Source: Deltaproteobacteria bacterium
Lineage (GTDB): Bacteria > Desulfobacterota > Binatia > UBA1149 > CAYXZP01
Direction of reading: 5' to 3'
Assembly: GCA_046583395.1 (NCBI GenBank)
Contig: JAYGCK010000004.1
Span: forward strand, 337-64,336
DNA length: 64,000 nt
The position numbers and the translations under genes are program-made. The notes below the pieces were generated by a model that saw nothing but the letters and a program-made list of their open reading frames with translations, searched no databases and was not told where the DNA came from. The stretch's first letter is position 1. Each line of letters starts with the position of its first letter. Positions 1 to 52,500 of this stretch are shown here, in pieces.

Positions 1-2033
1 CCGCAAATGCCCAAGTAATCGAAGTCCAGCTTCACAGTCGACGGCCCCGGGCTACCGGTGGCGGCGTTGATCGCGGCACTAGACGAGGGTGCGGTGCAGA
101 AGTTCGAGACCAACTCCGAACCGTTCTGCGACGCAGATCCTTCAGCTGTAATGGGATCGTTGAAGCAGGCGCGGGTCTTGGTGAGGGAGCAGCTCCCACA
201 GTCGCCACCCTGGCACTCGCCGGCCATGGTGTCACAGTCGGCGTCCGCGGTGCAGGTGATGAAGCCATTGCCGTTGGCACGCAATGCGCCGTCGCAGTAG
301 CTGTCGACCGGACCAGCCAGGCATGTGCCGTCGGTGCATTCGCCGTCGGCGCAGGCGTTGGGCCAGCGGTTGGCGCCACCGCCATTGCTCGTGCAGGTCC
401 CGGCCCCGGTGGCCGAACATTCCGCGTCCGAGTTGCACGGCAAGGCCGAGTCACCCGAGCACGTCGCGCACGCACAGTCGAAGCCGGTGTAGGGAGAGTC
501 GCACTCAGTATCGAAGCCCATCGATATTGGGCTGTCGGTCAGGTTCAATATGACGGACAATCCCGTGCCCGAGATATTGGCTCCGTCAGAGGGGCACTCG
601 TAGCTGGTCGGCCCGAAGGTCGGATGGTTGCCGTTCTCATCACACGACTGAGCATCGCGCGAACCGCCGTCACAGGTCCCACCCCGTACGCCATCGTTCG
701 GTGTCGGGTCACCATCACAGGTCGGGCAAGGCTGACTAGCCGAGATGCCAATTCGGATGACCGAGTTCATCGTCACGGCTGTCTCAGTATGTCCGGTTCC
801 CATGTCGGCCTGGCCGTCCAGTTCAGCGGTCAGCTTGTTCTGTATGCAGACGGGGTTACCCGCCGATGACAGAGCAAGCGGGGGACCGAAGGTGCAGTGG
901 CACATGTTGCCTCCGCAGTCGTCGGCGTCGGCACCCTCGATCGTGTCGCAGCGGACTGTCGGATCATTAGCGCAACGGCAGTAACCGTCCGGACGGTCTT
1001 TCATCGGATCGATGGTGACGTTGCAATCCTTGCAGTCCGCGTCACAGGCCAGGCTCACAGAGCCGTGGAACCCGTCAAGAACGTCCACGCCATGGCCCAG
1101 TCCGGTCCAGCCGATATCGAGAGATGTGTTGGTCAGCTGCACGCCGGTACCAGCGTTGACGAACACGCGTGCGCCAGTGGCGCAGTTGCCCGGCAGTTCC
1201 CACTGGGCGGCTACCAGACCACCGGCTTGGGCACCGACGATCTCATCGATACAGTCCTTAATCTGCTGAGCAGTGTCGCCGCAGGAACCCAATGCGTTGA
1301 GCTCGACCTTGCTGAGCGAGCCGCAGCCCTTATCGATGGAGGACATGGCCTTGGCACGCGCCTTGGCGATCTTGCCTTTGCCGTCGTAGCTGCCCTGGTC
1401 CCACACAGCCGTGCTTAAAGCTTTATCCCTGCCGGCCTGGGCCTTTCCGCGTTCTTTGCTGACCGTGTCGACCCACTTCATGTAGGCCTTGGGCAGGGTG
1501 CCGTGGCATTTGGCCTGGCCCTTGCTGAGGCCGGTTGGGGAGCCGAGGATGTCACGGGCGCTTTGCTCGACCGCGGCGTTGGCCAAGGCGACCAGGCAGT
1601 TGCCCAACTCACCAAAGTCGTCGATGCCATCGGTGGCACCGCCGTCATCGTAGCCATTGGCCGGGCTGGGGCAGCGGCCGAAGTTAGCTAGTACAGCGTC
1701 GTAGGTGACGCCGGTCTTTTTGTCCTTACACTTGCTCTTGGCACCGTCGATCGATCCACGAAGCTTATTGGCCGCTTTAGGGATCTTGTTCTTGGTATCG
1801 GCGACACTAATGTCGTTGCAGGCCGTGCTCGATCCCACTTTGCCTTTGTCGCGGTTCTTGTGGCAGCCGCCGAGGGCTTTTTGAGCGGCCGATACATACT
1901 TGCCCAGTCCCTTGGATATGGTCGCGCGGCACTTGCCCTCGGCCTTGTCCCAGGCGTGAGCTGGCGCCGATGAGAACACCAGGCCAACCACTGCCAGCAT
2001 GGCAACGACTTTAGCGAACGAGAAAGCTTTCAT
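1..2033 (-). CDS. Secreted Cys-rich protein, paralog A of the 2310..4709 gene (partial; 3' end lies beyond the window start). Signal peptide MKAFSFAKVVAMLAVVGLVFSSAPAHA.
   Basis: ATG at 2031-2033 on the minus strand. Translating by eye gives a frame that appears open to position 1. It aligns residue by residue with gene B (AWDK..KCRATISKGLGKYVS, CHGTLPKAYMK, TGVQLTNT, GWTG.GHGVD, PTFG, ANISG, CNSDAECSA.GAGTCTSNGGGANRWPN.CADG.CTDG). It is not in the ORF track, presumably because no stop falls inside the window. Confidence 0.6.
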   Translation of the reverse strand, partial: MKAFSFAKVVAMLAVVGLVFSSAPAHAWDKAEGKCRATISKGLGKYVSAAQKALGGCHKNRDKGKVGSSTACNDISVADTKNKIPKAANKLRGSIDGAKSKCKDKKTGVTYDAVLANFGRCPSPANGYDDGGATDGIDDFGELGNCLVALANAAVEQSARDILGSPTGLSKGQAKCHGTLPKAYMKWVDTVSKERGKAQAGRDKALSTAVWDQGSYDGKGKIAKARAKAMSSIDKGCGSLSKVELNALGSCGDTAQQIKDCIDEIVGAQAGGLVAAQWELPGNCATGARVFVNAGTGVQLTNTSLDIGWTGLGHGVDVLDGFHGSVSLACDADCKDCNVTIDPMKDRPDGYCRCANDPTVRCDTIEGADADDCGGNMCHCTFGPPLALSSAGNPVCIQNKLTAELDGQADMGTGHTETAVTMNSVIRIGISASQPCPTCDGDPTPNDGVRGGTCDGGSRDAQSCDENGNHPTFGPTSYECPSDGANISGTGLSVILNLTDSPISMGFDTECDSPYTGFDCACATCSGDSALPCNSDAECSATGAGTCTSNGGGANRWPNACADGECTDGTCLAGPVDSYCDGALRANGNGFITCTADADCDTMAGECQGGDCGSCSLTKTRACFNDPITAEGSASQNGSELVSNFCTAPSSSAAINAATGSPGPSTVKLDFDYLGIC

Positions 2034-2309: not shown

Positions 2310-4709
2310 TTAGTTCAGGCTAGCGCCGCTGTCTATCCAGTCACTAACGGCCTGGATTTGCGCTGCAGTGAGGGTCCCACCGGAGGGCATCTGCGCGCCG
2401 CTGCCTGTGCCCTCCAGCTTGTTAACCAAGTAGCTAAGTGACGAGTCTCCAGGCTCGACCAGGTCCGAGGGGGACTGACCCGACGTCACGCCGACAAGGG
2501 CATTGTATGAACTCACGGCGTCCTCGAATCCGCCCAGGCCCCCTGAGGCCGCACCACTGCTGTGGCAGCCTACACAGGACGACGAGATCGAGTCGTATAT
2601 GGCTCTCCAGGAATTCGCAGGAGATGTGCAGTTCGAACCCGCAGGGGGCTCGGCCACACTGCCATCGTCACAAAGGCCCTCGAATTCCATCGAGACCGTG
2701 ATCCGTGATGGTCCGGGGCTACCCGCAGCAGTGTTTATCGCCATACTATTCGAAGGCGGGGTACAAAATGTTGCTACCACGTCACCGCCGTTCTGACTGG
2801 TGTCACCTTCGGCGGTGATCGGGTCGGTGAAGCATGAGCGAGGCTCAGTGAGAGAGCAGGAGCCGCAGTCGCCTCCTGGGCACTCTGAGTTAAGAGCCTG
2901 GCAGTCTCCGTCGGTCTGACATGCCAGGATTCCCCCTCCATTGGCTCTGAGCATGCCGTCGCAGAAGGTGGCTGCCGGGCCAGCGTTGCAGACGCCGTCG
3001 GTGCAGACGCCATCGGCACAAGAGTTAGGCCAACGGTTGGCGCCACCACCGTTGCTGGTGCAGGTCCCTGCACCGGCCGCAGAACATTCCGCGTCCGAGT
3101 TGCACGGTAGGCTCGTGTCTCCCGAACATACCGCGCAGGCGCAGGCGTAACTCGTGAAGGGAGAGTCGCACTGCGTGTTGAACGGCAGCGAGACACTGCC
3201 CCCGGTGATGGTGAACGAGATATTCAGGCCCGCACCAGAGATGTTGGCTCCGTCCGGGGGGCAGTGGTAGCTGACCGATCCGAAGGTCGGGTGGTTAGCG
3301 TTCACGTCGCATGACTGACCGTCGCGCGATCCACCGTTGCATGTACCACCGTTGTTGCCGTCGTTGGCTGCACCGTCACCATCACAGGTAGGGCAAGGCT
3401 GACTCTGGCTGATCCCCAGACGCACGACCGCAGAACTCCTGATGGTGGTCTCGGCTGTGGCTGTCCCCTGATCGACCGATCCCTCAAGGTCATCGGTGAT
3501 GTTGGTCATAACGCACACCGGCGCACCGCCGGCAGAAAGTGGTAGCGGTGGTCCAAAGTGACAGTTGCATGTCGCGCCACCGCAGTCGTCAGCATCAGGT
3601 CCGGCTACGGTGTCGCAGGTCTGGGTGTAGTCGTTCGAGCAGCGGCAGTTTGCCCAGGGCTGGGTCTTGTCCGGGTCTAGCTCCACCCCGCAGTTGCGGC
3701 AGTCAGCATCGCAGCCGGTAAATGACGCCTGACCGATGAAGCCGTCGAGTATGTCGACGCCGTGCCCCATGCCGGTCCAGCCGGTATCAAGGCCGGTGTT
3801 GGTAAGCTGAACGCCGGTGCCAGCGAACGATTTGATCTGAACCTTAGCGGCACAGCGCGGCGCGATCACAAACTGAGATGACACTAAGCCGCGGGCCTGC
3901 TTGTCCGCGATGGTCTCAACGCAGTCCTTGATCTGCTGAGGAGTGTCGCCGCACGATTCGATCGCGTTCAGTTCTGCCAGGCTAAGCCCGCTGCAGCTCT
4001 TGTCGACGGACCCCATGGCCTTGGCAAGCGCTTTGGCGATCTTGCCTTTACCGTCGTAGTTGGCCTGGCTCCATACAGCCGTGCCACCGGCCTTATCGCT
4101 GCCGGCCTGGGCCTTCCCACGTTCCTTGGCCACGGTGTCGATGTACTTCATGTAGGCCTTGGGCAGGGTGCCGTGGCATTTGAGCTGCCCTTTGCTCAGC
4201 GAGCTGGGGCCAGGAAGCCCTATGATGTCGCGTGCGCTCTGTTGGACCTGGGCATTGGCTAGGGCGATCAGGCAGTCACCCAACTCACCGAAGTCGTCGA
4301 TGCCATCGGTGGCACCACCGTCGTCCGTTGCCTGGCCTGGGCTCGGACAACGTTCGAAGTTTGCAAGTACGTTGGTGTAGACTTGGCCGGACTTCTTGTC
4401 CTTGCACTTGCTCTTGGCGCCATGGATCGATCCACGAAGCTTACTGGCCGCTTTAGGGACCTTGGTCTTGATGTCAGCCTCACTGAGATCGTTGCAGTTC
4501 TTGCTCGACGAGATCTTGCCCTTATCGCGGCTTTTGTGACATCCGCCGATGGCCTTCTGGGCCGTTGAGACGTACTTGCCAAGCCCCTTGGAGATGGTTG
4601 CGCGGCACTTCATCTCGCCCTTGTCCCAGGCGTCAGCCGGGGCGGCCGACAGTACAAAAACGATCGCGGCCACGGTTGCGACTGCTTTGCTATATGCGGA
4701 TGTCACCAT
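2310..4709 (-). CDS. Secreted 799-aa Cys-rich protein (paralog B): signal peptide, Lys-rich N-terminal region, Cys-rich central region, C-terminal PSCyt1-like cytochrome-c-type domain (CVGCH ... VEPGDSSLSYLV ... MP ... WIDSGA)
   Basis: Complete ORF from the track. N-terminal MVTSAYSKAVATVAAIVFVLSAAPADA is a signal peptide. There are more than 60 Cys. The C-terminal ~90 aa match the PSCyt1 (PF07635-type) consensus, recalled from memory. A TAA stop and a terminator follow. Confidence 0.8.
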   Translation of the reverse strand: MVTSAYSKAVATVAAIVFVLSAAPADAWDKGEMKCRATISKGLGKYVSTAQKAIGGCHKSRDKGKISSSKNCNDLSEADIKTKVPKAASKLRGSIHGAKSKCKDKKSGQVYTNVLANFERCPSPGQATDDGGATDGIDDFGELGDCLIALANAQVQQSARDIIGLPGPSSLSKGQLKCHGTLPKAYMKYIDTVAKERGKAQAGSDKAGGTAVWSQANYDGKGKIAKALAKAMGSVDKSCSGLSLAELNAIESCGDTPQQIKDCVETIADKQARGLVSSQFVIAPRCAAKVQIKSFAGTGVQLTNTGLDTGWTGMGHGVDILDGFIGQASFTGCDADCRNCGVELDPDKTQPWANCRCSNDYTQTCDTVAGPDADDCGGATCNCHFGPPLPLSAGGAPVCVMTNITDDLEGSVDQGTATAETTIRSSAVVRLGISQSQPCPTCDGDGAANDGNNGGTCNGGSRDGQSCDVNANHPTFGSVSYHCPPDGANISGAGLNISFTITGGSVSLPFNTQCDSPFTSYACACAVCSGDTSLPCNSDAECSAAGAGTCTSNGGGANRWPNSCADGVCTDGVCNAGPAATFCDGMLRANGGGILACQTDGDCQALNSECPGGDCGSCSLTEPRSCFTDPITAEGDTSQNGGDVVATFCTPPSNSMAINTAAGSPGPSRITVSMEFEGLCDDGSVAEPPAGSNCTSPANSWRAIYDSISSSCVGCHSSGAASGGLGGFEDAVSSYNALVGVTSGQSPSDLVEPGDSSLSYLVNKLEGTGSGAQMPSGGTLTAAQIQAVSDWIDSGASLN

Positions 4710-4783
4710 GAATCAGATATCCCCCTGTTTGGTAGGTTCCCCTTAGCCTGGCCCACGAAGGGACAGCGGGGCACGTAACCGTC

Positions 4784-4813
4784 ATTGGTAGAAGCTAGTT
4801 CGGATGATGTCAA
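4784..4813 (-). promoter_or_regulatory. Candidate sigma70-type promoter for paralog B (minus strand: TTGACA, 17 nt spacer, TACCAAT)
   Basis: rc of 4808-4813 = TTGACA. rc of 4784-4790 = TACCAAT. A GGGGGA Shine-Dalgarno sits 12 nt before the ATG at 4709. Confidence 0.4.
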
Positions 4814-4928
4814 GAATTCAGGACGGTTCTTATAACCCGTTCAGGCGATGCGGCCGCCGGCTTTTGAGGCGAGGGAGGATTCGAGACCTCGCGCTCATGG
4901 GAGTTTTCGGTGAGCGTGCCCGTGGGCG

Positions 4929-4943
4929 CCCCCCCTTTGGGGG
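4929..4943. repeat. C7-TTT-G5 homopolymer hairpin
   Basis: ccccccc ttt ggggg read directly. It lies between the MBL stop (4968) and the paralog B promoter. Confidence 0.5.
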
Positions 4944-4967
4944 TGAGGTAGGCCGGGGCGGCGAGTC

Positions 4968-5654
4968 TTAGCCGGGAGCACCCATCATCGTTAGGAAATC
5001 CTCGACCCTTTCGAAACGCATGAAGGGGTTGTTGGTCTTCTCTCTCGCAATCGTCGAGGCCGGTTCTTCCGAGTAGGCGTGGCCCGGATAAAGGACCGTG
5101 TCGCCGGGCAATTTGGCCAGCTTTTGGGTCAGGCTGTAGTAGAGGTCGCTGGCATTGCTGCCGGGAAGGTCGACACGCCCGCAGGAGCCGATGAACAAGG
5201 TGTCGCCTGAGACCAGATTGTCGCCGGCCATGAAGCACTGCGAACCCGGTGTGTGTCCGGGCGTGTGGATGAAGCGAAGCGGGACCTTGCCGATACTGAT
5301 CTCGGTCTCGCCGTCGACGGCGACCATGTCGCTGGTCTCCAGTCCGATTGTTTGCGAGACCCAGGAGGCCTCTTCTTTGTTCACGTAGACCTTGACCCCG
5401 CGCTCTGTGAGCAACTCGGGGATACCGTCTATGTGCTGACCCATCATGTCCCCGCCTATGTGGTCGGGGTGAAAGTGGGTGACCAGCGCCCCGGTAAGCG
5501 TCATGTCGTCGTTGTCGAGCTGCTCGAGGATGGCCGGGATGTCCCACGCAGCATCGACCACCATCGCTTCGCGGCTTTCGGTGTCGCCGATGAGGTAGAC
5601 GTAGTTGGCCATCGGGCCGAGCAGCATCTGTTTCATGTATAGCGATGAGCCCAT
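4968..5654 (-). CDS. MBL-fold metallo-hydrolase (glyoxalase II-like)
   Basis: THFHPDHIGG (HxHxDH) motif, plus HTPGHTPGS and GDTLF. The start is chosen at MGSSLYMKQML (SD-like AGTAGGA); 5636 is an alternative start. Confidence 0.8.
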   Translation of the reverse strand: MGSSLYMKQMLLGPMANYVYLIGDTESREAMVVDAAWDIPAILEQLDNDDMTLTGALVTHFHPDHIGGDMMGQHIDGIPELLTERGVKVYVNKEEASWVSQTIGLETSDMVAVDGETEISIGKVPLRFIHTPGHTPGSQCFMAGDNLVSGDTLFIGSCGRVDLPGSNASDLYYSLTQKLAKLPGDTVLYPGHAYSEEPASTIAREKTNNPFMRFERVEDFLTMMGAPG

Positions 5655-5659
5655 CGGTC

Positions 5660-6301
5660 CTACTTCTTTGTCCTTGTGGCCTTCCGCTTGGACCTCTTCT
5701 TGGGGGACGGCTCGAGACCGTGTTGCCACAGGGTCTCCTTCTTGCGGCTCTTCTTTGCGATCCAGCGCGACTGCACGAACAGCAGGTCGCTGAGCCGGTT
5801 GAGGTAGCGCGCCGTCCACGGACCGGCGGCCTTCTTGCGTACCAGCGCGGTTACGGTCCTTTCGGCGCGCCTGCACACCGTTCGGGCCAGGTGGAGGGTC
5901 GCGCCTGCGGTACCGCCTCCCGGTAGCACGAAGGAACGGAGCGGTGCGAGGTCCTTTTGCAGCGCGTCCATCCCGGCCTCGAGCCTGTCGGTGTGCTTCT
6001 TGCCAACCGTAATCATTCCCTGGTAGGTCGCGCCGGGCGGGGTGGCCAGTTCCGAGCCCAGGTCGAACAGTTCCTGCTGGACGACTGCAAGTTCAGTGTC
6101 GAGGCGGCCCGAGGCCACCCGTCCTTTATAAGGGGGCTCGCCCAGGATTGCGCGTACCATGCCGACGACCGCGTTCAGCTCATCGACCTCGCCGTATGCC
6201 GAGATGCGCGGGTCGTCCTTGGGCACGCGCTTGCCGCCGACAAGGGCGGTTTTGCCGTCGTCGCCCGTGCGCGTGTAGACGCGGTTTATCCGTATGGCCA
6301 T
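5660..6301 (-). CDS. PduO-type ATP:cob(I)alamin adenosyltransferase with a 35-aa Lys/Arg-rich C-terminal tail
   Basis: N-terminus MAIRINRVYTRTGDDGKTALVGGKRVPKDDPRISAYGEVDELNAVVG is the classic PduO/MMAB signature. The tail reads KKSRKKETLWQHGLEPSPKKRSKRKATRTKK. Confidence 0.85.
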   Translation of the reverse strand: MAIRINRVYTRTGDDGKTALVGGKRVPKDDPRISAYGEVDELNAVVGMVRAILGEPPYKGRVASGRLDTELAVVQQELFDLGSELATPPGATYQGMITVGKKHTDRLEAGMDALQKDLAPLRSFVLPGGGTAGATLHLARTVCRRAERTVTALVRKKAAGPWTARYLNRLSDLLFVQSRWIAKKSRKKETLWQHGLEPSPKKRSKRKATRTKK

Positions 6302-6329
6302 TGTCGGGCAGGTCTAGCCGCTGCCCGGC

Positions 6330-7412
6330 TCAACCGCCAACACGGGCTTCGATGAGGTCGAGAAGGCGCTCGGGGTCGATGGGTTTCTTGAAAATGACGT
6401 CGTCGAGCCCGTCGGTCTTCGAGCGTTTTATTACATGGTCCTTGTCGTAATAGTACGCCGTCATCAGGACGACGGGCACGGACCCCGGCTGCCCGTTGAC
6501 TTCCCTGAACAGGTCGTAGCCGTCCATGTCGGGCATCACCACGTCGCTGATTACCAGGTCGGGGGTCTGCTCTTTGATCGCTTCGAGTGCCTCGAGCCCC
6601 GTTGCGCGCAGCATTACCTTGCAGCCCTCTGCGCCGAGTATCTCGGACATGGTCGAACGGATCTCTTCATCATCATCGACCACAAGTATGATCTTGCCCG
6701 ATAAATGACGGTTGCCGTCGTGTGCCGGTATGGAGCCCGTCTCTTCCTCGCCCAGGCCGAGGTCGGTCATCAGGCGGCCCGGCATATACTCGATGGTTCC
6801 GTAGGTCCCGGCCGCGGCTATCTCACCGACCCGTTCGACGATGGTCTGGATGCGGCGCAGCCCGCGCTTCATCGCTACGATGCGGTCGTGCCCGGACTTG
6901 TACACTTGCGTATCGACGTTGTTCTTGACGAAGCGCTCGAGCATGTCCGCGTGATTTACCAGAGACTCAAGTGGGTTGTTTATTTCGTGGGCCAGCCCGA
7001 TGGCCAGCTCGCCTAGGGTTGCGATCTGTTCGTGCAGGCGAAGCTCTTCGATGTCCTTGGCAAAACCGATGCTGCCCTGTTCGCGTTCCTTTTCGTCGTA
7101 GATGATTGAGCCCGAGACCGCCACGGGGATGCGTTTGCCGTCCTTGTCGACGAACTGTGTCTCGAAGTTCTTTACACGCCCGGCGCCCGATTCGGTCTCA
7201 CTGCGCATTGCGGCCATCACTCGCTTGGCCTCTTCGGCCGAAGGATAGAGCTCGAAAACGTGGGTGCCCAGCACCTCTTTGGCGGTGTAGCCGAGGGTGA
7301 GCGTTGCCCCGTCGTTGTAGAAGATGACCGTCCCCTTACGGTCGACCGCGACGACTATGTCGGGCGAACTTTCGAGCAGTCGTTCGAAGTAGACTTTGGG
7401 GAGTTCTTTCAA
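6330..7412 (-). CDS. PAS - HisKA(DHp) - receiver domain protein lacking a HATPase_c catalytic domain
   Basis: H-box LAHEINNPLESL. The C-terminal REC domain has the DDD ... SDVVMPDMDG ... LMTAY ... FKKP residues. There are only ~45 aa between the DHp and REC domains and no N/G1/G2 ATP-binding boxes. A PAS-like segment lies N-terminal (FELYPSAEEAKRV..TQFVDKDGKRIP). Confidence 0.8.
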   Translation of the reverse strand: MKELPKVYFERLLESSPDIVVAVDRKGTVIFYNDGATLTLGYTAKEVLGTHVFELYPSAEEAKRVMAAMRSETESGAGRVKNFETQFVDKDGKRIPVAVSGSIIYDEKEREQGSIGFAKDIEELRLHEQIATLGELAIGLAHEINNPLESLVNHADMLERFVKNNVDTQVYKSGHDRIVAMKRGLRRIQTIVERVGEIAAAGTYGTIEYMPGRLMTDLGLGEEETGSIPAHDGNRHLSGKIILVVDDDEEIRSTMSEILGAEGCKVMLRATGLEALEAIKEQTPDLVISDVVMPDMDGYDLFREVNGQPGSVPVVLMTAYYYDKDHVIKRSKTDGLDDVIFKKPIDPERLLDLIEARVGG

Positions 7413-7560
7413 TCGTTCGTAGGGGGTCGCAGGCGAGGGGCCGTCGAGGACGGCCTCCGTTTCACGGTATCCCCATGCCCGCTGTAGTCAAGACCGGTGC
7501 CCATCCCGGCGGGTGTCCGGGGGGGCTCTTATCGGGCATAATCCCTGGCTGCTGCCCGTG

Positions 7561-8010
7561 ATGTCACCGACAAGAAACCGCCGGTTGCCCGCGCTGCTGC
7601 TTTTGGCCGCCCTCGTGCTGCTGGCCGCGGGCTGCCAAGGGCGCCGCTTCGACCGGCAACTGACCGTTCATTCCGAACTGCTTGCCACCATGGCTGCCGA
7701 TGCTGCGGCCTCCTTGGAACAGCGGGCCGGGATGCCCGAGATACTCGGTCTCAGGTACCCGCTTGCCCGTGCCCGGGGCCTGGCTGCTCGTGGGACCGAG
7801 CGCTATCCCGGCCGCCCCTCGCTGGCGGCCTTCGAGGCGCTGGTGGCCGATTACGCCCTTCTGGTCGAACATTTGGAGCGCACCCGTGCGTTGGCCGGGA
7901 GCGTGGACGCCGTGGACCGGCAGTCCATCGATGAAGCGCGCCGGCTGGCCCGTCAGGTGGCCGAAGGCCGCGGCGACCTGCTCGTGTTGTTGGGTGGCGA
8001 GGGCCGCTAG
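7561..8010 (+). CDS. Hypothetical lipoprotein
   Basis: MSPTRNRRLPALLLLAALVLLAAGC is a signal peptide with a lipobox. The ORF runs to the stop at 8010. It is divergent from the PAS-HisKA-REC gene. Confidence 0.5.
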   Translation: MSPTRNRRLPALLLLAALVLLAAGCQGRRFDRQLTVHSELLATMAADAAASLEQRAGMPEILGLRYPLARARGLAARGTERYPGRPSLAAFEALVADYALLVEHLERTRALAGSVDAVDRQSIDEARRLARQVAEGRGDLLVLLGGEGR

Positions 8011-8032
8011 GCCGCGGCCCAGCCCGACCTTC

Positions 8033-8677
8033 TTACTTGGGGACCTTTTCCCAGTCGGCCAGAAAACGTTCCAGTCCGATATCGGTCAGCGGGTGGTGGG
8101 TGATTTGTTCGAGCACACTGAAGGGACAGGTCGCGACCTCGGCACCCATCTGCGCCCCGCGAATAAGATGGGTGGGGTTTCTTACGCTGGCGACCAGGAC
8201 CGAGGCCGGGTAGTCGTAGTTGGAGAGCATCTCACAGAGGATTGCCACCATTTCCATCCCGTCCTCGCCGATGTCGTCGAGCCGGCCGACAAAGGGACTG
8301 ATGTAGGTCGCCCCAGCCTTTGCCGCTAAAAGTCCCTGGACCGGTTGGAAGACCAGGGTCACGTTGACATTGATGCCTTCGCTCGAAAGTTGCTTGGTCG
8401 CCTTGAGCCCTTCGACAATCATCGGGACCTTGACGACTATGTTGGGGTGAATGGCGGCCAGGCGGCGGCCTTCCTCGAGCATGCCCGCGCATTCGGTGCT
8501 GACCACCTCGGCGCTTATCGGGCCATCGACGACCTCGCATATATCGGCCAGCGCGCTCTCGAAGCTGCGGCCCGTCTTGGCGATCAGCGAGGGGTTGGTC
8601 GTCACTCCGTCGATGATGCCCCAGGAATTGGCCTCGCGAATCTGGTCGATGTCGGCGCTGTCGATAAAGAGCTTCAT
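8033..8677 (-). CDS. tal: Transaldolase / fructose-6-phosphate aldolase (TalC/MipB family, ~214 aa)
   Basis: [31 protein letters not shown] ... [11 protein letters not shown] ... ISPFVGR are hallmark motifs. Confidence 0.85.
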
Positions 8678-42633: not shown

Positions 42634-43467
42634 TCACGGGGCGTGGGCGAAGCCACGTTTCTCCATCAGCCATCGCAGTATGGCCTTGGTGGCACGCGGG
42701 TCGATTGAGAACACGGTGTCGGACCTTTTACTGGTCTGTGCCAGTAGCGCGTGCGGGGCGTCCTTTATGACCACGAGCTTGGTCGCAAGCTTGCTGCCCG
42801 GTTCGTTCTTACGCGCATCGGCGACGAACTCGCCGAACTGAAAACGGTCTTCGGGAGCCTCGTCACCGACGACCACCAGTGTTGGAGCTGTAATCCTCAC
42901 GGCGGCCCGTTCTCCGACCTGGTTCGACAAAAGTACCACGCCGGCCACCGGGTTGATGTCCTCGTAGCGGGGGTAGATTCCCGCGATTGTGCCCGTTCCC
43001 GAACTGTGGCCGATGAGGAACACGCGTGAGGCGTCTATGCGGGCATGGTCTACTGCCCGCCGGTAGGCTTCGAGCGCGGTCGAACGGTCAGTGGCGTAGC
43101 GCCCCGGACTACTGCGCCCGGCCCCCGGCGCGTCGTAACGAAAGACGGCAAAGCCATTGCTCACCAACAGGTCGGTCAGTCGGGCGTAGATGCCGTCGTC
43201 ACCTTCGTTGCCGGTATCGGGCAGCGAGCCGTGGCGGTCTATCCGGCCCGCCGGAGGAACCAACAGTACCAACGGTGCGTTACCTTCGGCGGGGAAGTCC
43301 CACTGCGCGGCCACCACCGAGTCGACGCTTTCGAAGGTGGTCTCGGCCACGGGCGGGCGTGAACCGGGCTTGGGCGAGGCCACGGCGGTGGTTGCCGCCA
43401 CCAGCATGGCCATTGCGACGGCCGCGCCGAGCTTTGTCCTGAGCGGAGATGTCGTAGGGGCTGTCAA
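42634..43467 (-). CDS. Secreted alpha/beta hydrolase
   Basis: Signal peptide, GHSSG nucleophile elbow. Confidence 0.7.
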   Translation of the reverse strand: MTAPTTSPLRTKLGAAVAMAMLVAATTAVASPKPGSRPPVAETTFESVDSVVAAQWDFPAEGNAPLVLLVPPAGRIDRHGSLPDTGNEGDDGIYARLTDLLVSNGFAVFRYDAPGAGRSSPGRYATDRSTALEAYRRAVDHARIDASRVFLIGHSSGTGTIAGIYPRYEDINPVAGVVLLSNQVGERAAVRITAPTLVVVGDEAPEDRFQFGEFVADARKNEPGSKLATKLVVIKDAPHALLAQTSKRSDTVFSIDPRATKAILRWLMEKRGFAHAP

Positions 43468-43522
43468 GGAAGGCCGCGGGCCTGCCGCGGACTTTCAATC
43501 TGTGCTCCAGCAGCGCGGTGAG

Positions 43523-43759
43523 TCAAGACGGCCAACCCCGGCATGCTAGCGCTTCGCCGATGTGCGCGGCCGCAATCAGTTCGCTGTCGGCGAGGTCGGC
43601 GATAGTACGGGCAACGCGGGTCGTGCGTACGATTGAACGGCCACTGAGCCCGAGCTTGACCGCTGCTCTTACCATGAGCCGGTCGGCCTCGGGGCACAAG
43701 GTCTCGATGAGCGGCCGGGCCTGCGGCCGTTCCCGTGCACGACGGCGGGCCCGTCGGTA
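43523..43759 (-). pseudogene. 3'-terminal remnant (~75 codons) of comM/yifB (Mg-chelatase-like competence protein)
   Basis: Minus-strand frame reads ..ARPLIETLCPEADRLMVRAAVKLGLSGRSIVRTTRVARTIADLADSELIAAAHIGEALACRGWPS*. This matches the YifB/ComM C-terminus (LGLS.R ... RVARTIADL ... EAL.YR). An in-frame stop lies at 43760-43762. No AAA+ or N-terminal part exists in any frame upstream. Confidence 0.6.
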
Positions 43760-43869
43760 TCAATGACCCATCTGTTATTTAGCGCGTCGCGTCCGTCCGG
43801 CCTATTTGTCACGGGGCTCGCTCTGAGGGCTACGCTGGAAGTTCCGGTCGCACGCCGTAGGATGGGGCC

Positions 43870-44436
43870 GTGCTGTTGATGATCGATAACTATGACTCGT
43901 TCACCTACAACCTGGTTCAGTACCTGGGCGAGCTGGGTGCCGAGATAGAGGTCCACCGCAACGATCGTATCTCGGTCGAGGAGGTCCAGGCCAGGTCGCC
44001 CTCGGCCCTGCTTGTTTCGCCGGGCCCCTGCGACCCGGACAAGGCCGGCATCTCGGTTGACCTCATAAAGGCCATGGCCGGCCAGGTCCCGGTCCTCGGC
44101 GTGTGCCTCGGGCACCAGTGCGTCGGCCAGGCCTTCGGGGCCCGAATCGTACGCGCCGACCGTCTAATGCACGGCAAGACCTCGCCGATAGAGCACGACG
44201 GCCGCGGAATTTTCGAGGGGCTCGAACAGGGCTTTACCGCCACACGCTATCATTCGCTCATCGTTGAACGTGCCAGCATTCCCGAGGACTTCGAGATAAG
44301 CGCGTGGACGGCCGAGGGCGAGATTATGGGTCTTCGTCACAAGGAGATGGCCATCGACGGCGTTCAGTTCCATCCCGAATCGATACTGACAGAGGCCGGC
44401 AAGCAGTTGCTCGGTAACTTCCTGGCCACGCTGTGA
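43870..44436 (+). CDS. Glutamine amidotransferase of anthranilate / aminodeoxychorismate synthase (TrpG/PabA type)
   Basis: [19 protein letters not shown] ... GVCLGHQ ... HSL. Confidence 0.85.
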
Positions 44437-44951
44437 AGTTCGTCTCGCCATGGCCACGACGGTTGTGCACGGGCCTGTTGCTCTCGACAGCGGTCCTGGT
44501 CCTGCCGGGCTGCGCCACCTTGCGCGTTTTGCTCCTGCCGCGTTCCCCGTCGGCCGGGCCGGCCGGACAGCCGGCCGCGCAGGCCGTGGCGCCTAGCGGC
44601 GCCGAGCGGGCGCTGCTTTGCGGGGCCGCACGGGTATTGCAGGAGGCTGGCTTCAGTACCGCCGCGCTCGGAGACCGGGTGCTGGCCAACCGGCGTCTGC
44701 TACCCGAGCGCGGGCGCGTCGAGCTATTGGCCGGCCAATACGAGGTCGAAACGGACCCGGGCCACGAGGGGCCGGCGGTGCTTCGGTTGGCCTTGTCCGG
44801 CGGCGACGACGGCCTTTCCGTGGACCTTTCGACGGCGGGCTTTTCGATGAGCGCGGCCGCAGGCAAGGGCTTTGCCGAAGCGCTTCGTTCGGCGGCCTCC
44901 GATGCCGCGGCCTCGGCCGAATGCGCGCCTGGCCGGGCCGGACTTAAATAA
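44433..44951 (+). CDS. Hypothetical lipoprotein
   Basis: [13 protein letters not shown] lipobox. ATGA overlap with the upstream gene. Confidence 0.5.
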
Positions 44952-45048
44952 CAGTCCGGTCATTGCCCCCGCGGCGGGCCGGCTCGCCACGGGCCCTGTT
45001 TAGCCAGTGCGCCGATGAACTGCCCGCCCGCTCATCGATACCGGCGAG

Positions 45049-45354
45049 ATGTTCGCGGTCCTCGGACTCGGTCCCGCAGCCGGGGCCGCGGCCGGTGCCG
45101 GGGATGCCGAAAGTCCGGATAAGCCCGATAGGTCGCGGCTTCTCGCCCTTCTCAGGGACGGTCCCCAGCTGCTCGACGGGTTGGTTTCGGCCAGCGGGTT
45201 TGACGGCGCACGCGTCTTGGAGTTGTTAACAGCGCTCGAAATCGGGGGACTGGCCGAACGCACGTCGAGCGGCCTGTTCCGGGCCACGGTGAGACTCCGC
45301 CCGAACGGGGGGGGGGTTGACAACTGCGGCCCGACGGGCTTCCCGTATCAGAGG
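45049..45354 (+). pseudogene. Remnant of the dprA C-terminal winged-helix domain, in frame with topA
   Basis: SRLLALLRDGPQLLDGLVSASGFDGARVLELLTALEIGGLAERTSSGLFRATVR matches the DprA C-terminal (WH) consensus ..L..L..P...DeL....gl....l...L..LEl.GlV.r..Gg.y.r. No DprA Rossmann domain lies upstream in any frame. Confidence 0.5.
45307..45316. repeat. G10 homopolymeric tract 39-48 nt upstream of the topA ATG
   Basis: gggggggggg read directly. Confidence 0.6.
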
Positions 45355-47706
45355 ATGGCTGCAACCAAGCTTGTCATAGTGGAGTCGCCCGCCAAGGCGC
45401 GGACGCTGTCGCGCTATCTCGGCCGCGACTACCTCGTCAAGGCCTCGGTCGGTCACATCGCCGACCTGCCCAAGAGCAAGCTCGGTGTTGACGTCGACGA
45501 CAACTTCAAGCCCGACTACGAAATCATCCACGGCAAGGGCAAGGTCATCAAGGAGCTCAAGGCTGCGCTCAAGGGCAAGGACGCGCTCTATCTGGCACCC
45601 GACCCGGACCGTGAGGGCGAGGCCATTGCCTACCACATTGCCGAGCGTGTCGTGCCCAAGTCCTTCAAGGGTGAGGTGCACCGGGTGCTGTTCAACGAGA
45701 TTACGCGTTCGGGTGTCAAGGACGCCATCGCCAAGCCGGGAAAACTGGACATCGATAAGTTCGAAGCGCAGCAGGCCCGCCGTCTGATAGACCGTCTGGT
45801 CGGTTATCAGATAAGTCCATTGCTGTGGGAGAAGGTGCGTCGTGGTCTTTCGGCCGGACGCGTGCAGTCGGTGGCCGTCCATCTGATTGTCGAACGCGAC
45901 CGTGCCATCAAGGCCTTCGAGGCCGTCGAGTATTGGAGCATCACCGCCTCGCTCAACCCGACCGATGATAAGGACGCCGTGTTCAAGGCGCGCCTCATCG
46001 AGGTCGGCGGCAGCAAGATTGATCTGGCAAAGCTGCGCGAGGGCAAGAAGGACGAGGCCTTCTTCATCGGCGACGAGAAACAGGCCGGCGATATCATCAG
46101 CCGTCTCCAGGGTCGCGACGATTGGAATGTCGCGGCCATCAAGCGCTCGGCGCGCACGCGCAAGGCTCCGCCGCCTTTTATCACCTCGACGCTTCAGCAG
46201 GAGGCCTCGCGCAAGCTCGGTTACCAGCCCCGCCGCACCATGTCGGCGGCCCAGCGCCTGTACGAGGGCGTAGACCTCGGCGAGCATGGGATGACCGGGC
46301 TTATAACCTACATGCGCACCGATTCGGTGCGTTCGGCCCCCGAGGCCATCGATGCGGTGCGCGGCTACATAAAGAAGGAGTACGGCCAGGACTATCTTCC
46401 CGACAAGCCCAACGCCTATAAGACCAAGAAGGCCGCGCAGGACGCTCACGAGGCCATACGCCCGGCTTCGATGGATCTGCCGCCTGCGGCGGTGGCCAAA
46501 CACCTCAAGGCCGAGGAGCTAAAGGTCTACACCTTGGTGTGGAACCGCTTTGCCGCCAGTCAGATGCGGCCGGCGGCCTACGACCAGACCAGCGTCGACA
46601 TATCGAGCGATGATTGCGTGTTCAGGGCCTCGGGGCAGGTGATGAAGTTCGACGGTTTTCTCAAGATTTACGAGGAGGGTCGCGACCAGCCCTCCGACGA
46701 CGACGATGACATCGGCGCCCTGCCCGAGCTTGCCGAAGGCCAGGGGCTGGGTATGTCCGGCTTGGAGCCCGCCCAGCACTTCACCCAGCCGCCGCCTCGG
46801 TTCACGCAGGCATCTCTCATTCGCGAACTCGAGGAGAACGGCATCGGCCGGCCTTCGACCTATGCCTCTATCATGTCGACCATCATCGGGCGCGAGTACG
46901 TCACCCAGGACGACAGCCGGCGATTGCTGTCCACGCAGTTGGGCGAACTGGTCACCGACCTTCTTACCGAGGCCTTCCCCGACATCCTCAACGTGGAGTT
47001 CACCGCCGGGCTTGAGGACCATCTCGACCTGGTGGAGGGGGGAAGCGAGGATTGGCTGACGGTCACAAAGCGATTCTACGAACCCTTCAAGGCCAATCTG
47101 GAAAAGGCCAAGGTGGAGATGCCCGACGTCAAGGGGCGCGTCGAGGAGACCGAACTTCCCTGCGAGAACTGTGGCCACAAGTTGGTCGTCAAGTGGGGCA
47201 AGAACGGGGAGTTCCTGGCCTGCCCCGACTACCCGGACTGTAAGTTCACCAGCAACTTCGTTCGCCTGGACGACGGCACCATCGAGATTGAGGAACCCGA
47301 GGAGACCGGAGAGGTCTGCGACGAGTGCTCCAGTCCGATGCAATACAAATGGGGGAGCTACGGTAAGTTCCTCGGTTGTTCGGCCTACCCAGAATGCAAG
47401 AACGTGCGTTCTCTCAACCGCCCGGTGCCGATCGGGCTGGCCTGTCCGCCCGAGCCGCTCGGCTGCGGCGAGGGTGAGATGATGCGCAAGGTCTCGCGCC
47501 GGGGCCGGGTGTTCTACGGGTGCAATCGCTATCCCAAGTGCGAGTTCGCGTTGTGGGACAAGCCGGTCGAGGCGCCCTGCCCGGAGTGCGACGCGGCCTT
47601 CGTGGTCGAGAAGACCACCAAGCGTGCCGGCACGGTCAGACGCTGCCCCAGCGAGGACTGCGAGTACCAGGAGAGCATCGGCGAAGTGACAGCCGAGCAG
47701 GCCTGA
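45355..47706 (+). CDS. topA: DNA topoisomerase I with C-terminal zinc-ribbon repeats
   Basis: MAATKLVIVESPAKARTLSRYLG ... Toprim, then the topo IA core, then four Cx2C ... Cx2C ribbons. Confidence 0.9.
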   Translation: MAATKLVIVESPAKARTLSRYLGRDYLVKASVGHIADLPKSKLGVDVDDNFKPDYEIIHGKGKVIKELKAALKGKDALYLAPDPDREGEAIAYHIAERVVPKSFKGEVHRVLFNEITRSGVKDAIAKPGKLDIDKFEAQQARRLIDRLVGYQISPLLWEKVRRGLSAGRVQSVAVHLIVERDRAIKAFEAVEYWSITASLNPTDDKDAVFKARLIEVGGSKIDLAKLREGKKDEAFFIGDEKQAGDIISRLQGRDDWNVAAIKRSARTRKAPPPFITSTLQQEASRKLGYQPRRTMSAAQRLYEGVDLGEHGMTGLITYMRTDSVRSAPEAIDAVRGYIKKEYGQDYLPDKPNAYKTKKAAQDAHEAIRPASMDLPPAAVAKHLKAEELKVYTLVWNRFAASQMRPAAYDQTSVDISSDDCVFRASGQVMKFDGFLKIYEEGRDQPSDDDDDIGALPELAEGQGLGMSGLEPAQHFTQPPPRFTQASLIRELEENGIGRPSTYASIMSTIIGREYVTQDDSRRLLSTQLGELVTDLLTEAFPDILNVEFTAGLEDHLDLVEGGSEDWLTVTKRFYEPFKANLEKAKVEMPDVKGRVEETELPCENCGHKLVVKWGKNGEFLACPDYPDCKFTSNFVRLDDGTIEIEEPEETGEVCDECSSPMQYKWGSYGKFLGCSAYPECKNVRSLNRPVPIGLACPPEPLGCGEGEMMRKVSRRGRVFYGCNRYPKCEFALWDKPVEAPCPECDAAFVVEKTTKRAGTVRRCPSEDCEYQESIGEVTAEQA

Positions 47707-49530: not shown

Positions 49531-52500
49531 ATGCCCAAGGCCTTCCAACCCGCCGGCGGCCTTAGTGATGCCACCGGGCAGGCCCCGTCGCCGGCGCTTG
49601 CCCGGGGCTTCATCGAGCGTTTGACCGAGAGCGACGTCGGCCGTGGTCTTTCGGGCCTGACGGCCGAAAGACTGGGCGATCTCTGCTTCCTGCTTGGTTC
49701 GAGCCCGGCCTTGGCCAGACGGTTGCTCGCGCGCGGGACCGGATGGCCCCAACTTTTTGCTTCGGTATACGATGATGCCAACGGCAAGGGACCGCCGTCC
49801 GGTTCTGAGGCTGGCCGTCTGCAGGCCAGGCTGGCCGAACACGTGGCCGACGAGATGTTGCGCATCGGCGGCCGTGAGCTTTTAGGCCTTGCCGGGACAG
49901 CCGAGACCACCGCGCAGCTCAGCCGTCTGGCCGAAGGTGTTATCGAGGTCGCGCTTGCCGGTAGCCGACAGGCACTGGCCGCCGAACGCGAGCAGCCCTT
50001 GGATGCCAGAGGGCGCCCCCTGGGCTTCGTCGTTCTGGGGTTGGGCAAGCTCGGCGGCTCGGAACTCAACTATAGTTCGGACGTCGATCTCATCTATCTG
50101 CACGCGGGCTCGGACCGGACCGGCAGTGGTTCGGTGGCTCCCTTCTTCGACCAATTGGCCAAACGGCTTACCGCGATGCTCGCCGGCACCGGTTATCCGT
50201 CGTCCTGCTTTCGTGTCGATATGCGGCTCAGACCCTACGGGCGTGATGGCCCCCTGGTCTGCTCGGCCCAGGCCGCGCTCGATTACTACCAGCGTGCGGG
50301 GGAGACCTGGGAGCGTGGCGCTCTGATAAAGGCCCGTCCCGTGGCCGGCGACCTCGAGCTTGGCCGTGACTTCATCGAGCGGGTGGCCCCGTTCATATAC
50401 CGCCGCCACCTCGATTACCGCACGGCCGAGGACCTCAGGCTCATGAAGTCGCGCATCGACCAAGCTCAAAGCGGGAGCGGTCGCGCCGTGCGCGACGTCA
50501 AGATCGGCCCGGGCGGTATCCGCGAGATTGAGTTCGTTACCCAGCTCTTGCAGCTCGTTCACGGCGGACACGAGACCGGCGTGCGCGAACGCGGCACGGT
50601 CCGCGCGCTCGAGCTTCTCGAGGAGCACCGTTTTATCGGTTCAGAGCAGGCCATGGGCCTGCGCCAGGCCTACGGGTTCTTGCGGCAGGTCGAACACGCC
50701 GTCCAGGTTCCAGAGCAGCGCCAGACCCATACCCTGCCCACCGCCCCCGAAGGTCTCCGCCAGTTGGCCAGGCGTTTGGGCTACGGGAGCGGCCGGCGCG
50801 GCCGCGACCTGGGCGGGGATGAGGTCGCGAACTTCGAACGCGACTGGGGCCGCCACACCGGGTGTGTGCACGAGGTCTTTTTGCGCTTCCACGAACTGCG
50901 CCCACCCGAGAGCGGCCAGGGCAGCGCCTCCTCGGACCCGCTAAGTGCCGCCTTATTCGCCCATCTTGAGGCCGGCCGTTTGCGCGGGGCCGCTGACCTG
51001 CTCGAACAGCTCGGCTTTGGTGACGGCGAGCGCGCGGCCGGAGCCTTGGCGCGCCTGCAATCGGCCACAGAGACCGACACCGGCGGGCAGCGCACGCGGG
51101 CCGTGGCCGCGATGGCACCGTCGTTGGTAGAAGCGGCCGCGATATCCTCCGACCCCCAGTCATCGCTCGACAAGCTCGTTGACTTTCTCGTTCGTGCCGG
51201 TGCCCACACCAGTTACGCGGCTTTGTTGAGCGGCTCGGAATCGGCGATGCGAATTCTGGCAGTGCTCTTTTCGAGCAGTCCGTATCTGGCCGGGCTGCTG
51301 GTCGGACGTCCCGAGCTGCTCGATTGGTTGGCGCGCACGGCCGACCATGAGCGTCAGCCCGAACGCGCCGAGCTTGCCGCGGAAATCGTCGGGCGGCTCG
51401 CCGCTCCGGTCGCCGAGACCAAGACCAGCGGTGACGAGGAGCCGCTCTTGGCCCAGCTTCGTCTGTTCCGCACCGGACATCTGGTCCGCATCGGGATGGC
51501 CGACCTCGGTGGTGCGATAGACGACGCGGAGGTCCACGTGCAGTTGAGCCTTCTCGGCGAGGTCACTCTTGCCGCCGCGCTCGATGCCGCCCGTGACCTG
51601 CTTGGCACAGACCAGGCCCGAGGCGACTTGGGTAGGCTCGACCTGGCCGTGCTTGCACTCGGCAAGCTGGGCGGTCGCGAGATGAGCTATGGTTCCGACC
51701 TCGACCTCATCTTTGTCTATGATACCGGCAGTGCCGATTACGATGCCGGTTGCCACGCGCTGGCCACGCGCTGGGCCCAACGGTCGCTGGCGCTCTTGCA
51801 GACCCGGACCCGCGACGGGATTGCCTACCAGGTCGATACCAGGCTCAGGCCTTCGGGTTCGAGCGGACCGCTGGTGGTCTCGCTGGCGCGTTTTGCCGAG
51901 TACCATGCCGGTGAGGCGGCACTGTGGGAGCGCCAGGCTCACATCAAGGGGCGGGTGGTGTACGGAGGCACCGAACTGGCCGCACGAATCGAAGACCTGC
52001 GCCAAGGCTTTGTTTACGGGGCCGGCCTCGACAGTGCAGGTGTGGCCGAGATTGACCGAATGCGGCGCCGCATGGAAGCCGAACTGGCCCGCGAGTCGAG
52101 CCGGGGACGCAACATAAAGAGCGGGCGCGGGGCATTGGCCGATATCGATTTCCTGGCCCAGATGCTCGGGCTCGGCCACGGCGGCCGCCAGCCCGGAATG
52201 CGCCAGCGTTCGACGCTGTCGATTCTGGCCGCAGCCGCCGACAACGGACTTCTAGGCGCACACGAGGCGGCAGCCCTCATCGAGGACTATCGATTCTTGC
52301 GCCGTCTCGAATCCCGCTTGCGGCTCGAGCGCGACCGTCCCGTCGAACGCTTGGGGGACGATCCTCACGAGCTCGAACCCTTGGCCCTTAGACTGGGTTT
52401 CACTGCAAGGGATGCAGGAGCCGAACTGTCGGCGAACTACGACGCGACCTGCCAACGAGTGCGCGCCGCTTACGAAAGACACTTCGCGATAACCCGTTGA
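49531..52500 (+). CDS. glnE: Bifunctional glutamine synthetase adenylyltransferase / adenylyl-removing enzyme
   Basis: Two nucleotidyltransferase modules: GKLGGSELNYSSDVDLIY and GKLGGREMSYGSDLDLIF. Confidence 0.85.
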   Translation: MPKAFQPAGGLSDATGQAPSPALARGFIERLTESDVGRGLSGLTAERLGDLCFLLGSSPALARRLLARGTGWPQLFASVYDDANGKGPPSGSEAGRLQARLAEHVADEMLRIGGRELLGLAGTAETTAQLSRLAEGVIEVALAGSRQALAAEREQPLDARGRPLGFVVLGLGKLGGSELNYSSDVDLIYLHAGSDRTGSGSVAPFFDQLAKRLTAMLAGTGYPSSCFRVDMRLRPYGRDGPLVCSAQAALDYYQRAGETWERGALIKARPVAGDLELGRDFIERVAPFIYRRHLDYRTAEDLRLMKSRIDQAQSGSGRAVRDVKIGPGGIREIEFVTQLLQLVHGGHETGVRERGTVRALELLEEHRFIGSEQAMGLRQAYGFLRQVEHAVQVPEQRQTHTLPTAPEGLRQLARRLGYGSGRRGRDLGGDEVANFERDWGRHTGCVHEVFLRFHELRPPESGQGSASSDPLSAALFAHLEAGRLRGAADLLEQLGFGDGERAAGALARLQSATETDTGGQRTRAVAAMAPSLVEAAAISSDPQSSLDKLVDFLVRAGAHTSYAALLSGSESAMRILAVLFSSSPYLAGLLVGRPELLDWLARTADHERQPERAELAAEIVGRLAAPVAETKTSGDEEPLLAQLRLFRTGHLVRIGMADLGGAIDDAEVHVQLSLLGEVTLAAALDAARDLLGTDQARGDLGRLDLAVLALGKLGGREMSYGSDLDLIFVYDTGSADYDAGCHALATRWAQRSLALLQTRTRDGIAYQVDTRLRPSGSSGPLVVSLARFAEYHAGEAALWERQAHIKGRVVYGGTELAARIEDLRQGFVYGAGLDSAGVAEIDRMRRRMEAELARESSRGRNIKSGRGALADIDFLAQMLGLGHGGRQPGMRQRSTLSILAAAADNGLLGAHEAAALIEDYRFLRRLESRLRLERDRPVERLGDDPHELEPLALRLGFTARDAGAELSANYDATCQRVRAAYERHFAITR

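Follow-up and report, generated by a model that had tools for sequence, protein, structure and literature searches.

A fragment of comM is found in the window (the whole 64-kb stretch of DNA that was analysed), where it lies between an alpha/beta hydrolase (42634-43467, minus strand, with a probable ATG at 43413) and a divergent class-I glutamine amidotransferase of the trpG/pabA type (43870-44436, plus strand). The minus-strand frame of the fragment is open from 43759 to 43526, which gives 78 codons, and is closed by a TGA at 43525-43523. Another in-frame TGA is located directly upstream at 43762-43760, as had been claimed from the sequence alone. The features of this interval are listed below.

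43523-43759, minus strand: 3' remnant of comM, 78 codons and a stop, recognised by Pfam and tblastn matches and by its dN/dS
43760-43803, minus strand: retained ancestral comM leader, recognised by local DNA alignment to positions 8374-8415 of the relative L004, just upstream of the intact comM there
43761-43778, minus strand: motif ATAACAGATGGGTCATTG in the orphan comM leader, exact match
43804-43869, unstranded: trpG-upstream region, the rest of the divergent trpG-comM intergenic region, aligning to about 2256-2341 of L004
43683-43796, minus strand: 114-nt segment present in the window and deleted in the close relatives L001-L003, defined by alignment, blastn break points and repeat positions
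43414-43522, minus strand: intergenic spacer from the comM stop to the probable ATG of the hydrolase (43413), nearly invariant among close relatives

The full reading of the frame from 43759 to 43526 is YRRARRRARERPQARPLIETLCPEADRLMVRAAVKLGLSGRSIVRTTRVARTIADLADSELIAAAHIGEALACRGWPS, followed by the stop. The peptide quoted in the original prediction is read in the same frame and begins 12 residues in, and its assignment to the C-terminal end of a minus-strand comM/yifB gene is confirmed by four separate matches. The remnant matches the Pfam profile PF13335 (Mg_chelatase_C) at positions 40-94 of 94 with an E-value of 2.6e-13 and 50.8 bits against a cutoff of 26, which disposes of the concern that the fragment might fail to align with ComM/YifB. 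It also matches residues 447-495 of 509 in the solved ComM structure 8rxd and residues 452-492 of Escherichia coli YifB. When the intact ComM found at the syntenic position in L004 was compared with the window by tblastn, only its ORF residues 432-506 were observed to align (57% identity, E 3e-16). The remnant corresponds to about the last 75 of the ~494 residues of ComM, that is, to the second half of the Mg_chelatase_C domain, and carries the VARTIADL...EAL.YR signature of the PF13335 helical domain.

The remaining parts of the protein were not found. The ChlI/Lon-like N-terminal domain (PF13541) occurs neither in the fragment nor in any of the six reading frames of the window, and no segment of the window matched the AAA+ core (PF01078, Mg_chelatase, with Walker A and B) at E <0.03 in tblastn searches with E. 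coli YifB and the ComM proteins of L004 and L005. The PF13335 domain is itself incomplete, with its first 39 profile positions missing. No frameshifted continuation of comM was recovered further upstream, either by reading the three minus-strand frames of 43523-43870 or by sensitive tblastn with three full-length ComMs, and the suspicion that a longer gene might appear once frameshifts are allowed can be set aside. Compared with ComM/YifB (8rxd; E. coli YifB, b3765), the remnant shares the C-terminal helical domain PF13335 and the orthologous position but lacks PF13541, PF01078 and the first 39 positions of PF13335. Judged from this domain content, the remnant cannot be an ATPase or a helicase.

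The original prediction had also described the fragment as lacking a start codon and the next 110 nt as holding no further ComM sequence, and both statements need some qualification. The ancestral start is lost, but internal starts exist in the remnant frame at TTG 43699 and at ATG 43675, the latter with a GAGG 11 nt upstream. The fragment has been called as a gene by three pipelines, either as a 58-aa ORF (NCBI, 'hypothetical protein') or as a 50-aa ORF. No part of ComM is encoded in the 110 nt from 43760 to 43869, but these have a recognisable origin, being made up of the comM leader (43760-43803) and the trpG-upstream region (43804-43869).

The ancestral locus and the breakpoints of the deletion

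Species-representative genomes were searched with the hydrolase of the window, and two relatives, L004 and L005, were found in which the hydrolase is 78% and 53% identical to that of the window, respectively. A full-length comM is located directly upstream of the hydrolase in both, and the ComM ORF of L004 has all three domains, namely ChlI (residues 32-155), Mg_chelatase (residues 207-411) and Mg_chelatase_C. Further loci (L009-L011, L012, L013 and L014) were reached through homologues of the L004 ComM. An intact comM of 490-562 aa was observed at the orthologous position in seven related contig lineages; in L014 the gene stops at 443 aa at the contig end, and that contig ends before the abhydrolase-MFP-RND genes. 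The conserved gene order is trmFO-topA-dprA-trpG followed, in divergent orientation, by comM-abhydrolase-MFP-RND, and the window agrees with it in gene content, order and orientation. It departs from its relatives only by the comM stub, a dprA stub and a gene of 172 aa between trpG and dprA, the last being shared with L004. comM lies between trpG and the abhydrolase gene in L005, L009-L011, L012 and L013 and next to trpG in L014, and the remnant is homologous to this intact comM and occupies its syntenic position.

In L004, comM is directly upstream of the abhydrolase gene but is separated from trpG by 6 kb (2342-8331) that encode a hypothetical protein, a TetR regulator, two amidohydrolases and a short-chain dehydrogenase. 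This block is probably an insertion specific to L004, since trpG and comM are adjacent in the more distant L005, L009, L012, L013 and L014. We also noticed that L005 (CAXQPB010000034.1) is labelled as an archaeal (Nitrosopumilus) MAG, yet it carries the bacterial topA-dprA-trpG and comM-abhydrolase-MFP-RND locus. The archaeal label in the public record probably stems from misbinning.

About 1.3 kb is missing from the window between the comM leader and about codon 420, which amounts to the first ~85% of the gene. The leader, read from 43803 to 43760, is GGCCGGACGGACGCGACGCGCTAAATAACAGATGGGTCATTGA, and the 5' deletion junction (about 43757-43760) forms its end. On its other side, the alignment of the trpG-upstream region (43804-43869) to L004 runs up to TTGACAAATAG(G/A)CCG(G/A)ACGG, and this region departs from L001 by a single change and from L003 by two. 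After GTCATTGA, the sequence of the window passes straight into codons that match ComM at residue ~420 of ~494, although the position of the junction is uncertain by roughly 10 nt as the nearest intact relative is too diverged in DNA. The R-rich 'ARERQ' and the 'NARL...C' found just past the junction are native features of ComM, as seen in P0008 and P0013.

Comparison with L005 and L009 places the real start of comM at a GTG/ATG (MLA.T..C) about 35 nt downstream of GTCATTGA. The start codon was therefore deleted and not frameshifted, and a conserved but out-of-frame ancestral TTG, which the start of the L004 ORF (TTG 8412) had suggested as a candidate, is ruled out. With the ancestral start inside the deletion and no core detected in the window, the earlier statement that both were missing is upheld. 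The same statement had left undecided whether the fragment marked a deletion or a replacement. Both flanks and the comM leader are kept, and by comparison with the syntenic relatives the event is a deletion and not a replacement. No mobile element or foreign DNA was found between halves of comM; there is a single comM piece, the leader runs without a gap into codon ~420, and both flanks are colinear with those of the relatives. On the downstream side, the spacer between the comM stop and the hydrolase shows one mismatch (43493) against L001 and L003, and the hydrolase is called in relatives as a protein of 259 aa that starts at the equivalent ATG.

The window comes from a metagenome-assembled genome, and the implausible taxon label of L005 illustrates that binning errors do occur. 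One might ask on these grounds whether the truncation is an artefact of assembly or binning, such as a collapsed or chimeric contig, with an intact comM really present. However, the junction of trpG, comM tail and abhydrolase gene is repeated in the independent assemblies L001, L002 and L003, no runs of N occur at the junction, and both flanks are colinear with the relatives. We consider an artefact to be so improbable that it can practically be disregarded.

Decay of the fragment in close relatives

L001, L002 and L003 are contigs from other samples that share about 98.5% identity with the window across 7.3 kb. They carry the truncated comM locus as well, which together with the window makes four assemblies from different samples. 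The fragment was observed to have 11 mismatches in 160 nt, the highest value of all sliding windows over the 7.3 kb (mean 2.5; Poisson P 7e-5). Its changes comprise 8 non-synonymous and 2 synonymous substitutions, giving a dN/dS of 1.5 against L001 and 1.3 against L003, where it should be kept in mind that the counts are small (10 changes). In the neighbouring genes (abhydrolase, trpG, the 172-aa gene, topA and trmFO), dN/dS is 0.04-0.30 and dS is 0.025-0.042. The ratio of 8:2 in the fragment differs from the pooled 19:50 of the neighbours (Fisher p 0.002), and the dN of the fragment is 10-40 times that of the neighbouring genes. Counting all changes, the fragment has diverged by about 0.067, a value equal to or slightly higher than the synonymous rate of the neighbours (P about 0.04), which fits neutral drift.

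The conserved EAL.YR positions have changed independently in different lineages, with Y replaced by C in the window and L replaced by R in L001. In addition, a segment of 114 nt that is present in the window has been lost from L001-L003. The segment is bounded exactly by direct AGGCCG repeats that start at 43803 and 43689 on the minus strand, and with it L001-L003 have lost the leader motif, the junction and the first 26 codons of the remnant. Relative to its neighbours the fragment is under relaxed constraint, and it carries lesions that preclude a product and continues to erode. A scan of 43300-44000 for sigma-70 promoters and terminators found none, and a scan of 43300-45500 against Rfam gave no family match at E up to 1. 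Because of its top-ranking divergence, its dN/dS, the 114-nt loss and these two negative scans, we read the fragment as neutral DNA, and it behaves as such while still eroding.

These data also bear on whether the short ORF, of 58 aa if translation starts at TTG 43699 and of 50 aa if it starts at ATG 43675, could be a functional mini-protein consisting of a stand-alone Mg_chelatase_C domain. Gene callers have annotated it in four assemblies, the ORF is open in all of them, and a GAGG precedes ATG 43675 by 11 nt. The remnant may also be transcribed, as it still lies behind its old leader in the window, though not in L001-L003. However, such a protein would be expected to be under purifying selection and to keep the same start and length in different relatives, whereas dN/dS is at least 1 and the length is 58 aa in one call and 50 aa in the other. 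The dN/dS of 1.3-1.5, with a dN 10-40 times that of the neighbours, belongs to the most divergent stretch in 7.3 kb; the N-terminal extent varies, since 114 nt including upstream codons are deleted in L001-L003; residues conserved in the family have mutated independently between lineages; and the ORF covers only half of the domain profile. A functional mini-protein is accordingly regarded as very improbable.

Another explanation is that the remnant DNA is kept for a function in cis, for example as a promoter or 5' element of the abhydrolase-MFP-RND genes, with longer deletions being selected against. The near invariance of the spacer 43414-43522 (1 mismatch) would agree with this, as would the analogous 3' remnant of dprA, where a conserved TTGACGGCGCACG.GT..TGGAGTTGTTAAC suggests an embedded control element for topA. 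The comM fragment, by contrast, is the least conserved DNA in the region, and therefore a constrained element, if there is any, would lie in the spacer and not in the fragment. Moreover, neither a sigma-70-like promoter or terminator in 43300-44000 nor an Rfam match was seen. We hold a cis function of the fragment to be unlikely and retain the reading of a decaying gene: it is very probable that the feature is a non-functional, decaying relic of comM that was left behind by a deletion of about 1.3 kb.

Remnants of dprA and the motif shared with comM

The adjacent dprA gene is also reduced to fragments in the window (44972-45354, plus strand). The relevant features are the following.

44948-44965, plus strand: second exact copy of the motif, immediately after the 172-aa gene ends and ahead of the dprA remnant
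44972-45037, plus strand: N-terminal piece of dprA, about codons 30-51, in a frame that differs from that of the C-terminal piece
45022-45354, plus strand: C-terminal piece of dprA, codons ~276-374, with the winged-helix domain, recognised by tblastn and Pfam

The N-terminal piece, RRAGSPRALFSQCADELPARSS, aligns to residues 30-51 of the L004 DprA with a score of 51, which was reached by 2 of 500 shuffles. Residues 276-374 of the same protein match the window at 45022-45312 in tblastn (53.5% identity, E 4e-22). The L004 DprA is a protein of 375 aa with the domains DNA_processg_A and DprA_WH, and the relatives that have an intact comM all have an intact dprA (375-396 aa). A weak DprA-like match elsewhere in the window (50619-49951, E 2e-4) was judged to be spurious, since it runs antisense to glnE and gave no match in Pfam.

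The ORF annotated as 'TopA' (45049-47706, 884/885 aa) opens with the Pfam domain DprA_WH at ORF residues 19-73. The window and L001 have lost one A beside a run of ten G (45307-45316) relative to L017, and the dprA stub now reads into topA. The native dprA stop, GAT TGA, is kept in L017, L016 and L004, which rules out a conserved DprA_WH-TopA fusion protein; L017 (...GGGGAT TGA) otherwise has the allele of the window. The adjoining 885-aa 'TopA' should be understood as the TopA ORF run together with a dprA pseudogene.

L016 and L017 are short Tara Oceans contigs; where they overlap the window, their identity to it is about 96-97%. L016 (a contig of 538 nt from Tara ERR594333, compared with window 44940-45360) keeps dprA codons 7-20, ~109-136 and 304-375, and the dprA pieces kept by the window are missing from it. 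Since L016 keeps different pieces, dprA was lost at least twice in the clade, by independent routes that started from a gene still intact until recently.

One part of the dprA 3' end stands out by its conservation. The stretch 45198-45290 (plus strand), which begins TTGACGGCGCACGCGTCTTGGAGTTGTTAACAGCGCTCGAA, is about 95% identical to L004 and includes rare TTG/TTA codons in a genome of 65% GC. The sequence TTGACGGCGCACG.GT..TGGAGTTGTTAAC.GCGCT.GA within the dprA 3' stretch is recognisable even in L009 and L013, and the core GTTGTTAAC.GCGCT.GA together with a TTGAC box can be recognised where the neighbouring proteins are only ~50-70% identical to those of the window. A candidate topA control element embedded here may be present and would explain the survival of this end of dprA.

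A near-identity of 21 nt (19/21), GCCCG(G/C)CCGCTCATCGA(G/T)ACC, was noticed between the comM remnant (43720-43700, minus strand) and the dprA remnant (45022-45042, plus strand). The two segments are in inverted orientation, both encode ARPLI(E/D)T, and the score of their match was reached by 0 of 300 shuffles. A templated patch or recombination scar was rejected as an explanation because ARPLI(E/D)T is native to each family, its counterparts being 'NARL...C' of ComM in P0008 and P0013 and 'ARPFLAT' of DprA in L004. The match is probably a coincidence between native sequences.

Exactly two matches to ATAACA-N5-GTCATTG were found in the 64 kb, with no further match at up to 2 mismatches, and these are the copies in the comM leader and ahead of the dprA remnant. 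L004 likewise has exactly two copies, which are located upstream of its intact comM (8397-8414, plus strand) and its intact dprA (1179-1196, minus strand). The core G[GT]CATTG was observed in sense orientation upstream of dprA in 7 of the 7 lineages examined and, in relaxed form, upstream of comM in 5 of the 7, against a background of one hit per about 2.7 kb per strand that makes for a generous statistic since the pattern was derived post hoc. The motif reads as an imperfect dyad, ATrAC-N6-GTCAT, and as such it is a plausible candidate for a common operator of comM and dprA.

The CRP-S competence sites of Gammaproteobacteria are located upstream of competence genes and have the sequence TGCGA-N6-TCGCA. 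Our motif is like them in being an imperfect 5-N6-5 dyad upstream of both comM and dprA, but it differs from TGCGA-N6-TCGCA in sequence, it concerns the two target genes examined and it is a putative operator. We would suggest only tentatively, and with some doubt, that the dyad is the operator of an undescribed competence regulon in an uncultured marine lineage and that the paired, repeated destruction of comM and dprA records a loss of transformation. If this were true, transformation would have been lost, whether by selection or by mere tolerance, in a free-living planktonic bacterium and not in a pathogen or symbiont. The shared motif also offers a testable handle on the regulation of competence genes in this uncultured group. 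The marine lineage is labelled as Deltaproteobacteria/Myxococcales in the source records.

Proposed history and comparison with known systems

In the ancestor, comM was adjacent to and divergent from trpG and lay directly upstream of the abhydrolase-MFP-RND efflux cluster. A single deletion of ~1.3 kb, or a few that together had this effect, then removed the gene from just after GTCATTGA in the leader to about codon 420. Lost with it were the start codon, the N-terminal ChlI/Lon-like domain, the entire AAA+ ATPase core and one half of the domain at the C-terminus. The remaining 78 codons have subsequently drifted without constraint at the protein level, and further erosion, presumably by microhomology-mediated deletion, has cost the sister lineage another 114 nt. 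The adjacent dprA was likewise cut to fragments by several deletions, with a different path of decay in another closely related marine population.

ComM/YifB is a hexameric AAA+ helicase that drives branch migration during the integration of transforming DNA, and DprA loads RecA onto the incoming single-stranded DNA. The two proteins represent the two dedicated cytoplasmic steps of natural transformation, and both genes are deleted at this one locus. Since comM and dprA are both reduced to remnants, these cytoplasmic steps have most likely been abandoned in the lineage. Several metagenomes, of which at least two are marine (Tara Oceans), contain closely related populations with this paired loss, and dprA has been lost by at least two independent routes.

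It might be objected that only the local comM is dead and that a second functional comM (and dprA) elsewhere in the genome leaves no function lost. The visible part of the genome is 64 kb, and in other bacteria, members of the ComM family are found in different genomic surroundings (L015). However, no protein more than 58% identical to the L004 ComM was found among 5.8 billion database proteins, a set that includes the MAG's own annotation of the remnant, although this is weak negative evidence. The loci of the relatives, examined by tblastn, also gave no second ComM match beyond the syntenic copy, and comM and dprA decay together, dprA repeatedly, which is the pattern expected if the whole pathway is dispensable. 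P0116 (L014) and P0132 (L015), which bear the same organism label, were considered as second comM copies and rejected because both are from other assemblies. A functional second copy therefore has a small chance of existing, and we favour a genome in which comM would be absent apart from the remnant.

Previous work describes ComM as having the ChlI, Mg_chelatase and Mg_chelatase_C domains and as a helicase that aids the recombination of transforming DNA, while DprA shields incoming single-stranded DNA and recruits RecA (PMC11472951). In Acinetobacter baumannii, comM is the transformation gene that is most often pseudogenised (22% of strains), and inactivation of comM is also found in Aggregatibacter actinomycetemcomitans and the Pasteurellaceae (PMC11472951). 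The known cases are mostly due to mobile elements (AbaR/Tn7-like islands, IS and defence islands) that leave both halves of the gene in place (PMC11472951). The locus described here resembles the A. baumannii type of comM pseudogene in being an inactivation of comM in a natural lineage, with reduced transformation to be expected. It differs from that type in having a clean deletion of ~1.3 kb without a mobile element and with intact flanking synteny, in the additional loss of dprA, and in its origin from an uncultured marine lineage. If the proposed history holds, the locus would be an environmental example of a lineage that abandoned transformation without the involvement of a mobile element.

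On every point compared above, the remnant falls short of a functional ComM and has the properties of a pseudogene, and the public labels 'hypothetical protein' and 'magnesium chelatase family protein' should read comM pseudogene. It is an ordinary deletion pseudogene of a known type, to which the paired, recurrent loss of comM and dprA and the shared dyad add modest interest. Deletional decay of pseudogenes is a general principle of genome reduction in bacteria. The internal deletion, the neutral substitutions and the small deletions between short direct repeats (AGGCCG) observed here are all in keeping with this principle, a matching pattern is shown by dprA and by glnE in L001, and no essential difference was apparent. 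The locus is a typical case, followed here through several closely related uncultured marine populations.

The window has an intact glnE gene (glutamine synthetase adenylyltransferase, 989 aa) at 49531-52500 (plus strand). In the 98.5%-identical L001 it is an in-frame stub of 123 aa (3892-4263) from which about 2.6 kb, corresponding to window 49736-52322, is missing. At the orthologous position, glnE is absent in L009 and present in L012. It seems that this lineage has repeatedly undergone large internal deletions.
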